Source of the DNA: Promethearchaeota archaeon
GTDB lineage: Archaea; Asgardarchaeota; Lokiarchaeia; Sigyniarchaeales; SOKP01
Direction: 5' to 3'
Assembly (NCBI GenBank): GCA_013375475.1
Contig: JABXKD010000012.1
Location: forward strand, 1 to 58,819
Length of the DNA stretch: 58,819 bases
The notes under the pieces: generated by a model
What the model was told of the DNA's origin: nothing
The model's database searches: none
What the model saw: the letters and a program-made list of their open reading frames with translations, nothing else
Made by a program: the position numbers and the translations under genes
In this document: one piece after another, positions 21,072 through 22,655 of the stretch
Layout: each line of letters opens with the position of its first letter
Position numbering within the stretch: position 1 is the stretch's first letter

Positions 21072-22655
21072 CTATTTTTTAAATTCTTTACCGTAACCTA
21101 TTAATCGATAGCGTCGATTGATGATTCTTGAAATTGCAAAAACAGAGTTTGCTGGAGCGCATATAGGGGGGTTTAAACTAATGATATAGGAATTTTTTAA
21201 TATTTTTACTACAATTCCCGCTGTTTTCTCAGTGCCAACGACTAGTAAAAGCTTCTCATTATGCTTAAGTAGTTGAACTTTCATTTGAACTTCTGATCCG
21301 AGAACTCTTTCTAGTAAATTAACCTTTAATTCAACTTCGGATATTACTTCTGGTAAAGTATCAGGTATACCTACTAGATGGCCTATTAAAGAATCTCCCC
21401 TTGTTAATGCAGGATCTAGTTTAGTGCCTAACCCAATTAGACCCCCTGGTTTAGCTTCAGCTAAGAGATTGCTTCCTTGGCTAATACTCACTATTTGAGT
21501 TTTTAATGAATTATATTTATTTTTAATCCGAAATCCCGGTTTAATCTCAATTTCTTCGCCAACTTTGATTTTCCCTTTTAAAACAGAACCTCCTATAACT
21601 CCGCCATTCAATTCATTAATTTGAGTACCAGGTCGATTGATATCGAACGATCGAGCAACTAAGAATTGAAAATCGTCCTCTTCATTAATACTTGGAGAAG
21701 GAATTATTTCTTCAAACGCTCGAACTACTAATCCAAGGTTTGCTCCAAAAACCGCAGACACAGGGATAATGGGTGCTTTATCTGCGACTGTGCCTTTTAC
21801 AAATGCTTTAATTTGACTGTAGTTTTCAAGCGCTTGCTCTCTTGAAACAGCGTCAATTTTATTCTGAATTATTATTATGTTGTTGATACCCGCGATATTT
21901 AACGCAGCTAAATGTTCTCTAGTTTGTGGTTGAGGACACACCTCATCAGCAGAAACTAATAAACACGCACCATTCATTAATGAAGCACCGCTCAGCATAG
22001 TAGCCATTAAGATTTCATGACCCGGAGCATCTACAAAGGAGATATTTCTTCTAAACTCTAAGGTATTTGAACAGCTTGGGCAATTAAATCTAGGTTTACC
22101 TTTTTTTCGAGCAATTTCTGCCATGTAATAGGTAAGATATTCATCACATTCTGGACAGTGTAATATAGTAGCATTTGAATATCCTAATTTAATAGAAATT
22201 CCTCTCTCTTGTTCTTCTGAATGCCTATCTGTCCAATCACCTGTAAGGGCTTTGACTAGCGTGGTCTTTATAGGAATTTGTCGAAAAGACTAATTCATTC
22301 CATGATCTACATGGCCCACTAGTCCAATATTACATTCAGCTTGCTTCTTTATTAATTCTTTCAAGTTTATGCTTTTTTGCGGCTTAGTTTTTGTTGTTAC
22401 TTCTGCTTTTTTTACCGGTTTCTTTTTTACTTCCGGTTTTGAAATTTCTAATTCGGAAAATTTCTCATTCAATAATGATTTTGCACTTTCTATAAATTTG
22501 GACGCTGTTGCTTTACCGACACCTTTGATATTAAGTTTCAAAAGATCCTCTGGTTTGGAAGAAGCTAAAATTTCAACAGATTTGATACCTGCCTCTTTTA
22601 TTTTTTTAGCTGTTTCAGAACCAATTCCTTTTACATCTTCTAATTGATAAACCAT
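21072..22655 (-). CDS. eif2g: Translation initiation factor aIF2 gamma, two exons (22655-22298 and 22267-21072), with N-terminal HhH extension; 517 aa after splicing
   Basis: NIGLVGHVDHG [30-nt insert] KTTLVKALTGDWTDRHSEEQERGISIKLGYS, Zn knuckle (CPEC...CPSC), DAPGHEILMATMLSG, PQPQTREHL, QNKID, RSFDINRPG, RYRLIGYG. The two ORF-track fragments share one frame and are separated only by the intron's TAG. Confidence 0.95.
22268..22297 (-). other. 30-nt archaeal-type (BHB) intron in aIF2-gamma mRNA
   Basis: RNA ...GAUC AUGG AA^U GAAUU A GUC UUUUC GAC A AAUUC CUAU AA^A GACC...: 4-bp helix AUGG/CUAU, two 3-nt bulges; cutting after bulge nt 2 restores CAU GGA AAG ACC (H-G-K-T). Confidence 0.9.

Follow-up and report, generated by a model that had tools for sequence, protein, structure and literature searches.

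The 58,819-nt stretch of contig JABXKD010000012.1 (hereafter the window) of the Lokiarchaeial metagenome-assembled genome (MAG) GCA_013375475.1 carries, on the minus strand at 21072..22655, the gene for the gamma subunit of archaeal translation initiation factor 2 (aIF2-gamma; eif2g). The coding region reads in a single frame through to its terminal stop, with one internal TAG. This TAG (22290..22292) lies in an insert that splits the invariant G1 motif GHVDHGKTT, the P-loop of the GTPase: between GHVDHG and KTT the minus strand reads M-N-stop-S-F-R-Q-I-P-I, exactly the 30 nt named in the original prediction. The stretch 22297..22268 is very probably a bulge-helix-bulge (BHB) intron, carried by the pre-mRNA of a gene that has no second copy in this genome. 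Exon 1 (22298..22655) would then encode a helix-hairpin-helix extension at the N-terminus, followed by a linker and the P-loop's first half, GHVDHG, and would end on the first base of the Lys codon; its start agrees with the N-termini of congeners. Exon 2 (21072..22267) would open with the other two bases of that codon and continue through the TT of the P-loop, the remaining G domain and domains II and III to the stop codon. Translation of the unspliced mRNA would stop after 121 residues.

The RNA around the insert has the core of a BHB motif. A central 4-bp helix is formed by AUGG (22300..22303), contributed by the His and Gly codons of exon 1, and CUAU (22270..22273) on the intron side. Two 3-nt bulges, AAU (22297..22299) and AAA (22267..22269), flank this helix on opposite strands, and the predicted cuts fall at 22298/22297 and 22268/22267. 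The intron (22268..22297) starts with the last base of the 5' bulge, continues through a 23-nt hairpin and the central helix's 3' strand, and ends after the second base of the 3' bulge. Its hairpin (inner helix and loop h', 22274..22296) has a 5-bp stem, an A.A mismatch, a 3-bp stem and a loop of 5 nt, is present in the minimum-energy fold and on its own folds at -4.4 kcal/mol (z -3.2 against shuffles). On the other side of the central helix, the adjacent outer pairs join UC (22305..22304) to GA (22266..22265), and a distal exon-exon helix of 10 bp between 22315..22324 and 22254..22264 extends this 2-bp outer helix in the RNAalifold consensus of 12 congeners. The same geometry, with two 3-nt bulges on opposite strands of a 4-bp helix, recurs in 22 distinct relatives. 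Rfam covariance models gave no match in 21900..22700 at E values up to 1, and 30 nt is far too short for a self-splicing group I or group II intron.

In silico removal of 22297..22268, which corresponds to the cut after the second nucleotide of each bulge that had been predicted, yields a 517-codon frame with an intact P-loop. The product is recognized as aIF2-gamma by the NCBIfam models NF003077 (544.1 bits, cut-off 315) and TIGR03680 (533.6 bits, cut-off 514.5; residues 103-522), both scored on a translation that runs across the insert and has X in place of the stop, with model positions 5-408 of 412 covered. The N-terminal extension matches Pfam HHH_5 at residues 5-59 (22479..22643, minus strand; E 2.4e-11), resembles the N-terminus of RadA in NCBIfam and is followed by a Lys/Glu/Pro-rich linker of about 45 residues. 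This helix-hairpin-helix domain is present in all 38 aIF2-gamma N-termini examined from the genus and is missing from the 409-aa aIF2-gamma of the distant genome G266.

The insert is present in DNA assembled separately. A contig of run X1 from the Logan assembly (1686 nt, depth 50) matches 21642..22800 without a single difference, insert included; this run is possibly the source sample of the MAG. The interrupted gene is the sole eif2g copy in a MAG scored as 100% complete, so that no second intact gene accompanies it: the next matches to the query are weak and belong to other GTPases or helix-hairpin-helix proteins, and a pattern search of the genome for the intron-less P-loop found none. The closest named records are MAGs of Promethearchaeota or Promethearchaeia, in line with the Asgard host that had been proposed from the sequence.

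Inserts at the same site are widespread among the relatives of this organism. We searched 42 genomes of the genus and found eif2g in 39, with the insert in 12 and an uninterrupted site in 27; G005 has both forms. Across the order, a strict pattern recovers the insert in 24 of 154 genomes (none with the reversed pattern as a control), while 107 carry the uninterrupted pattern, 4 more a KTS variant of it, and 14 are unclassified. A wider pattern finds it in 30 of the 135 genomes of family f1, spread over 9 of 13 genera, and in none of the 19 genomes of the sister families f2-f4; five of the additional cases that it contributed were read base by base. Six of the 37 genomes hit by the wider pattern (five from family f25, and G384) were set aside, as their strings run through the GHVDHGK(T..) of other GTPases and contain no insert.

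Insert length is nearly constant. In family f1, 24 inserts are of 29 nt, five of 30 nt and one of 32 nt; the corresponding numbers for all 32 intron-bearing genomes are 25, six and one, and 11 of the 12 inserts within the genus measure 29 nt. Thus 26 of 32 inserts (29 or 32 nt) would shift the reading frame if they were not removed. Removal by the BHB rule restores GHVDHGKTT in all 12 congeners; eleven then have open frames of 520-530 aa, and a contig end truncates the remaining one. Every case that was read gives GHVDHGKT(T/S), including the distant genomes G266 and G269.

These two genomes belong to the distant Asgard family f20, which is GC-rich and carries a 29- or 30-nt insert in two of its five genomes (G269:C27, locus L175; G266:C3, locus L183). 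There the insert sits 1 nt downstream of the f1 site, in phase 2 of the Lys codon, has a central helix of CGGC/GCCG or CGGU/GCCG, and likewise carries stops or shifts the frame. Its position points to either a second gain or a sliding of the intron.

Comparison of the orthologous inserts indicates that their fold has been maintained while their sequence has not. The essentially gapless alignment holds 22 distinct inserts, two exact duplicates among the 24 strict-pattern cases being omitted. The inserts are highly divergent and include at least four hairpin types, yet length and fold are retained. Paired cells amount to 87%, compared with at most 51.5% in slid controls, and the covariation score of 0.413 exceeds that of shuffled alignments (0.162 +/- 0.021; 0 of 500 shuffles reach it). 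Double changes occur in 9 of 14 pairs (40 cells), and all eight pairs of the inner helix are changed on both sides somewhere among the relatives. The original prediction had named compensatory changes at this site as a check across Asgard genomes, and the alignment contains such changes. In the central helix, 92% of cells are paired and one double change occurs. In G066 the His codon is CAC rather than CAT, which makes the exon strand ACGG, and the intron strand is CCGU in place of the CUAU or CCAU found elsewhere; this is, as read from the alignment, a compensation between an exon codon and the intron.

The exons carry a signature of the same kind. The His-Gly codons read CATGGA in 22 of the 23 contexts with an intron, against 7 of the 70 without one. 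Similarly, when 30 nt of exon 1 are paired with 30 nt of exon 2, the best duplex reaches a median of -16.2 kcal/mol in intron-bearing genes compared with -9.1 kcal/mol in intron-less ones (Mann-Whitney p = 7e-12, uncorrected for relatedness, and thus overstating the difference because the genomes are related). The specific 10-pair exon-exon helix is modestly better formed in intron-bearers, with a mean of 8.0 against 6.7 pairs. In other genera an outer helix of 6 bp directly adjoins the motif, and synonymous changes on its two exon strands covary (ACGUGG/CCACGU, ACGUCG/CGACGU and AUGUGG/CCACAU). On this comparative evidence the BHB fold is under selection, and the flanking exon codons show a bias toward pairing between the exons.

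The genome encodes the enzymes that such an intron would need. The splicing endonuclease (EndA) family PF01974 has two matches (99 and 70 bits), on contigs C215 and C133, and the ligase RtcB one (PF01139, 561 bits), on C211. The first EndA homologue, of 200 aa, is closest to crenarchaeal-type chains (3p1z_B, E 1.8e-35) and retains Tyr, His and Lys at the aligned positions, which we take to be the catalytic triad; the second, of 202 aa, has Ser in place of the His of the Methanocaldococcus jannaschii chain. PMC5829648 describes an (alpha-beta)2 EndA in Asgard archaea with a loop that confers a broad substrate range, and the two homologues, judged by their sequences, fit this type. ARAGORN predicts introns of 6-77 nt in 19 of the 41 tRNA genes of the genome, many at non-canonical positions; none of these tRNA genes lies within the window.

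From these elements a pathway can be proposed. The transcript would fold so that the exon strand AUGG pairs with the intron strand CUAU, leaving a 3-nt bulge on each strand, the intron hairpin on one side and the exon-exon pairing on the other. A two-subunit archaeal endonuclease of the alpha-beta type would cut two nucleotides into each bulge, and RtcB would ligate the exons, rebuilding the Lys codon and with it the P-loop. The 30-nt intron would be released, probably as a circle, and any mRNA escaping the reaction would give only the 121-residue fragment that ends at the TAG. The BHB assignment is supported by how the insert is built, by the conservation and covariation that it shows in about 30 related genomes, by constrained exon codons, by the single gene copy and by the presence of the enzymes; splicing itself we infer from these. 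The same evidence lends support to the proposal in the original prediction that an essential initiation factor depends on tRNA-type splicing.

Several observations weigh against this interpretation. Energetically, the single-sequence fold has a z-score of only -1.45, and in the lineage of the window the BHB conformer lies 6.7 kcal/mol above the minimum-energy fold (110-nt context), because CCAUG (22310..22314), which is part of that fold, can pair with CAUGG (22304..22300) and so compete with the central helix. This penalty recurs in 7 of the 11 g1 intron contexts folded, the window included, and the other four differ by 1.0-6.3 kcal/mol; in other genera the BHB is itself the most stable fold or at most about 1.5 kcal/mol above it. 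Structurally, the outer helix adjacent to the motif has only 2 bp in the window, and the remaining exon pairing is distal (22324..22315 with 22264..22254). One adjacent outer pair is broken in 3-4 of the 22 sequences, with outer pairs formed in 84% of cells, and a non-standard central-helix pair occurs in 7 of 22 (G.A in six, A.C in one). The hairpins of the relatives G099 and G125, taken alone, fold at 0 kcal/mol. The motif had been called a textbook, canonical BHB; its central helix, bulges and hairpin are as described, but the label is slightly generous for a 2-bp outer helix and a conformer that is not the minimum-energy fold. To these points may be added a contamination estimate of 6.4% for the MAG.

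Transcript and protein collections likewise offer no direct witness. Six RNA runs contain part of the gene, and contigs of three (X5, X18 and X19) were compared; no contig of this organism among them reaches across 22220..22280. X5 yields two 79-nt RNA contigs that lie on 22300..22343 and then continue in the intron-less reading. These were rejected as a spliced product: since they have GGG for Gly and depart from the window in the codons downstream (...KSLTG), we assign them, as transcripts or as DNA, to a relative without the intron. A 151-nt contig of X19, a poly(A)-selected metatranscriptome, is identical to 22471..22621 in the A-rich linker region of exon 1 and may reflect internal priming on the A-rich stretch or carry-over of DNA. 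A set of 5.8 billion proteins contains no full-length protein of at least 90% identity. The best full-length matches (82-83%), P0002 and P0004, have the same exon-1 type without the insert; as P0004 is moreover a MAG protein (in ncbi and jgi), both are read as products of intron-less genes and not as evidence of splicing.

A further point of the same kind comes from the rest of the genome, where a strict-motif scan shows no excess of other candidate mRNA introns. The scan demanded 4 of 4 central pairs, at least 4 inner and 2 outer base pairs and a length of 18-120 nt, and relaxed motifs escape it. Among its 77,921 structural candidates, 496 join two open frames of at least 60 codons, against 472 expected from 400,000 random decoys; with candidates that have a start codon within 25 codons downstream left out, the numbers are 54 and 49.7. 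In 18 inspected candidates with at least 100 open codons on each side, a convincing hairpin and protein context were found in eif2g only. The eif2g intron would therefore be a lone case in this genome. The cbf5 gene, for instance, is uninterrupted, its TruB_N matches lying in one 355-aa stop-free frame (G000:C211:50110-50451; loci L181 and L182) on the contig that also carries RtcB.

Could the insert be tolerated, or removed, without EndA and RtcB? Another nuclease might excise it, or ribosomes might hop over the 29-30 nt by programmed translational bypassing. The TAG two codons after the Gly codon and the hairpin that opens the gap give the insert a superficial likeness to the gap in T4 gene 60, and the RNA contigs of X5, X18 and X19, which miss the junction, do not speak against bypassing. 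Programmed bypassing, of which T4 gene 60 and the byps of yeast mitochondria are examples, depends on matched take-off and landing codons and not on BHB geometry. The T4 gap is likewise a short non-coding stretch of an open reading frame that starts with a stop codon and a hairpin, but the matched codons are absent from eif2g: take-off would be at GGA, whereas AUA precedes the resumed AAG frame. Nor would hopping require the conserved, exact BHB geometry with its exon-intron and exon-exon pairing, and the genome both encodes the BHB enzymes and contains many intron-bearing tRNA genes. We accordingly regard removal or tolerance by any such other route as quite improbable. That the insert disables a pseudogene, or a gene on its way to loss, is less probable again. 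The in-frame stop here, the frameshifting lengths in relatives and the prospect of gene callers splitting eif2g would all suit a decaying gene. Such a gene would nevertheless be the only eif2g of a MAG scored as complete; both exons are open and conserved in 12 of 12 congeners, exon 2 has 85-94% identity among close relatives without internal stops, and the insert has been kept across nine genera under compensatory change.

Two further explanations we consider next to negligible. An assembly or sequencing artefact, or a chimeric contig, might be suspected in a MAG of 288 contigs with the contamination noted above, the more so as contigs of other assemblies break at the intron site. The insert nevertheless recurs, diverged and covarying, in dozens of separate assemblies, and the Logan contig of run X1 reproduces it unchanged at depth 50. 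Recoding of the TAG as an amino acid, with ten extra residues kept in the protein, would be compatible with an insert that here is a multiple of three and has a single TAG. Yet 26 of the 32 orthologous inserts are not multiples of three, several also contain TAA or TGA, and the additional residues would sit within the invariant G1 motif itself. A BHB intron removed from the pre-mRNA thus remains the reading that we prefer.

The breakage of contigs at this site is itself of a recurrent kind. In G024 the contig C243 (locus L044) ends precisely at the first codon of exon 2, and the database proteins P0101 and P0102, labelled partial and encoded on contigs of 4,920 and 4,469 bases, start precisely at KTT. 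G005, with 8% contamination, has on its two contigs C106 and C165 both a full-length eif2g without the intron and a fragment with it, the intron matching that of G050 exactly; G005 probably represents a mixed bin. The boundary between intron and exon 2 seems to be a point where assemblies break, perhaps because intron-bearing and intron-less alleles coexist in the samples.

The history of the intron differs between the two halves of the gene. In the exon-2 tree its distribution is patchy, requires six changes and has intron-less genes nested among intron-bearing ones. In the exon-1 tree, a single clade (SH-aLRT 100) takes in all but one of the 12 intron-bearing genes of the genus; only G009 is nested in this clade without the intron. 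The intron accompanies one exon-1 type, beginning MVYQLEDVKGIGSE. Close pairs (G004/G008, G052/G049 and G050/G020; loci L009-L055) differ by about 3% in exon 2 and by 30-50% upstream of the intron site. This discordance points to recombination near the intron, with exon 1 and intron exchanged together, and suggests break-points at or near the intron (about 22300 in the window). For G009 and for the genes of P0002 and P0004 we infer precise loss of the intron. Taken together, the intron looks old within one family of Lokiarchaeial type and looks to have been precisely lost many times, partly through recombination of exon 1 with its intron. A bolder reading, which we consider improbable, is that the P-loop site is a preferred target for insertion of BHB introns, given that a second Asgard family has one a single nucleotide away.

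The original prediction had also likened the intron to HAC1 and XBP1 and proposed a regulatory switch on translation initiation. In its strongest form this would mean that the intron is not a passive relic: in the lineage of the window the CCAUG/CAUGG hairpin would mask the central helix's 5' strand and switch the transcript between a fold that can be spliced and one that cannot, so that EndA and RtcB gate the capacity for initiation in a prokaryotic analogue of HAC1/XBP1. We consider this unlikely. The proposal is unsupported, and it is weakened by the precise loss of the intron in very close relatives (G008 beside G004, and G009 within the intron-bearing exon-1 clade). PMC13149111 describes HAC1/XBP1 splicing by the endonuclease IRE1 together with a tRNA ligase or RtcB. 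The likeness lies in spliceosome-independent mRNA splicing, in which a protein endonuclease acts at RNA structures, a tRNA-type ligase joins the ends and the coding content changes. On the other hand, HAC1 and XBP1 rely on IRE1 and a motif of two stem-loops and are regulated by stress, whereas any regulation of the eif2g intron would be conjectural.

BHB introns in archaeal mRNA are rare, as had been stated at the outset, and cbf5 is the sole archaeal precedent in the open literature that we searched. The cbf5 pre-mRNA intron of Crenarchaeota was reportedly described in Watanabe 2002 and Yoshinari 2006. According to PMC2738675 (Yokobori 2009), that intron is ancestral to its clade, was secondarily lost in some lineages and was missed by gene callers. 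The eif2g intron would be similar in being of a clade-ancestral type, lost in lineages and overlooked by gene callers; it differs in its gene, and is thus not homologous to the cbf5 intron, in its phylum (Asgard archaea) and in its position within the P-loop of an essential translation factor, and its splicing is predicted. Compared with the BHB introns of tRNAs, as treated in the consulted sections of PMC11291895 and bioRxiv 10.64898/2026.10.13.758758, it has the same motif, the same predicted enzymes, a similar size and exon bases as one strand of the central helix. Its host RNA, on the other hand, is an mRNA, so that reading frame, codon choice and coupling to translation matter. The same sections of these two sources make no mention of mRNA introns; in the preprint the word 'mRNA' does not occur, and the single 'protein-coding' concerns neighbouring genes. 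No report of a BHB intron in aIF2-gamma, or in any protein gene of Asgard archaea, was found in the literature searched, whose scope leaves most subscription journals and supplements aside and makes the novelty provisional.

If the interpretation holds, eif2g would be the second archaeal gene family with a BHB pre-mRNA intron and, within the same literature, the first in the Asgard archaea, the prokaryotes most closely related to eukaryotes. With about 30 orthologues that carry the intron and more than 100 that do not, precise losses, exon codons shaped by RNA structure and a second lineage shifted by one base, the gene provides a natural experiment of unusual richness. In practical terms, standard gene callers split or truncate eif2g, a universal marker gene, in these MAGs. 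Since the P-loop is interrupted in the only eif2g copy, the protein could be made only after the tRNA-splicing enzymes have repaired its mRNA. An intron in the catalytic loop of an essential translation factor would thereby make the viability of the cell dependent on mRNA splicing by tRNA enzymes.

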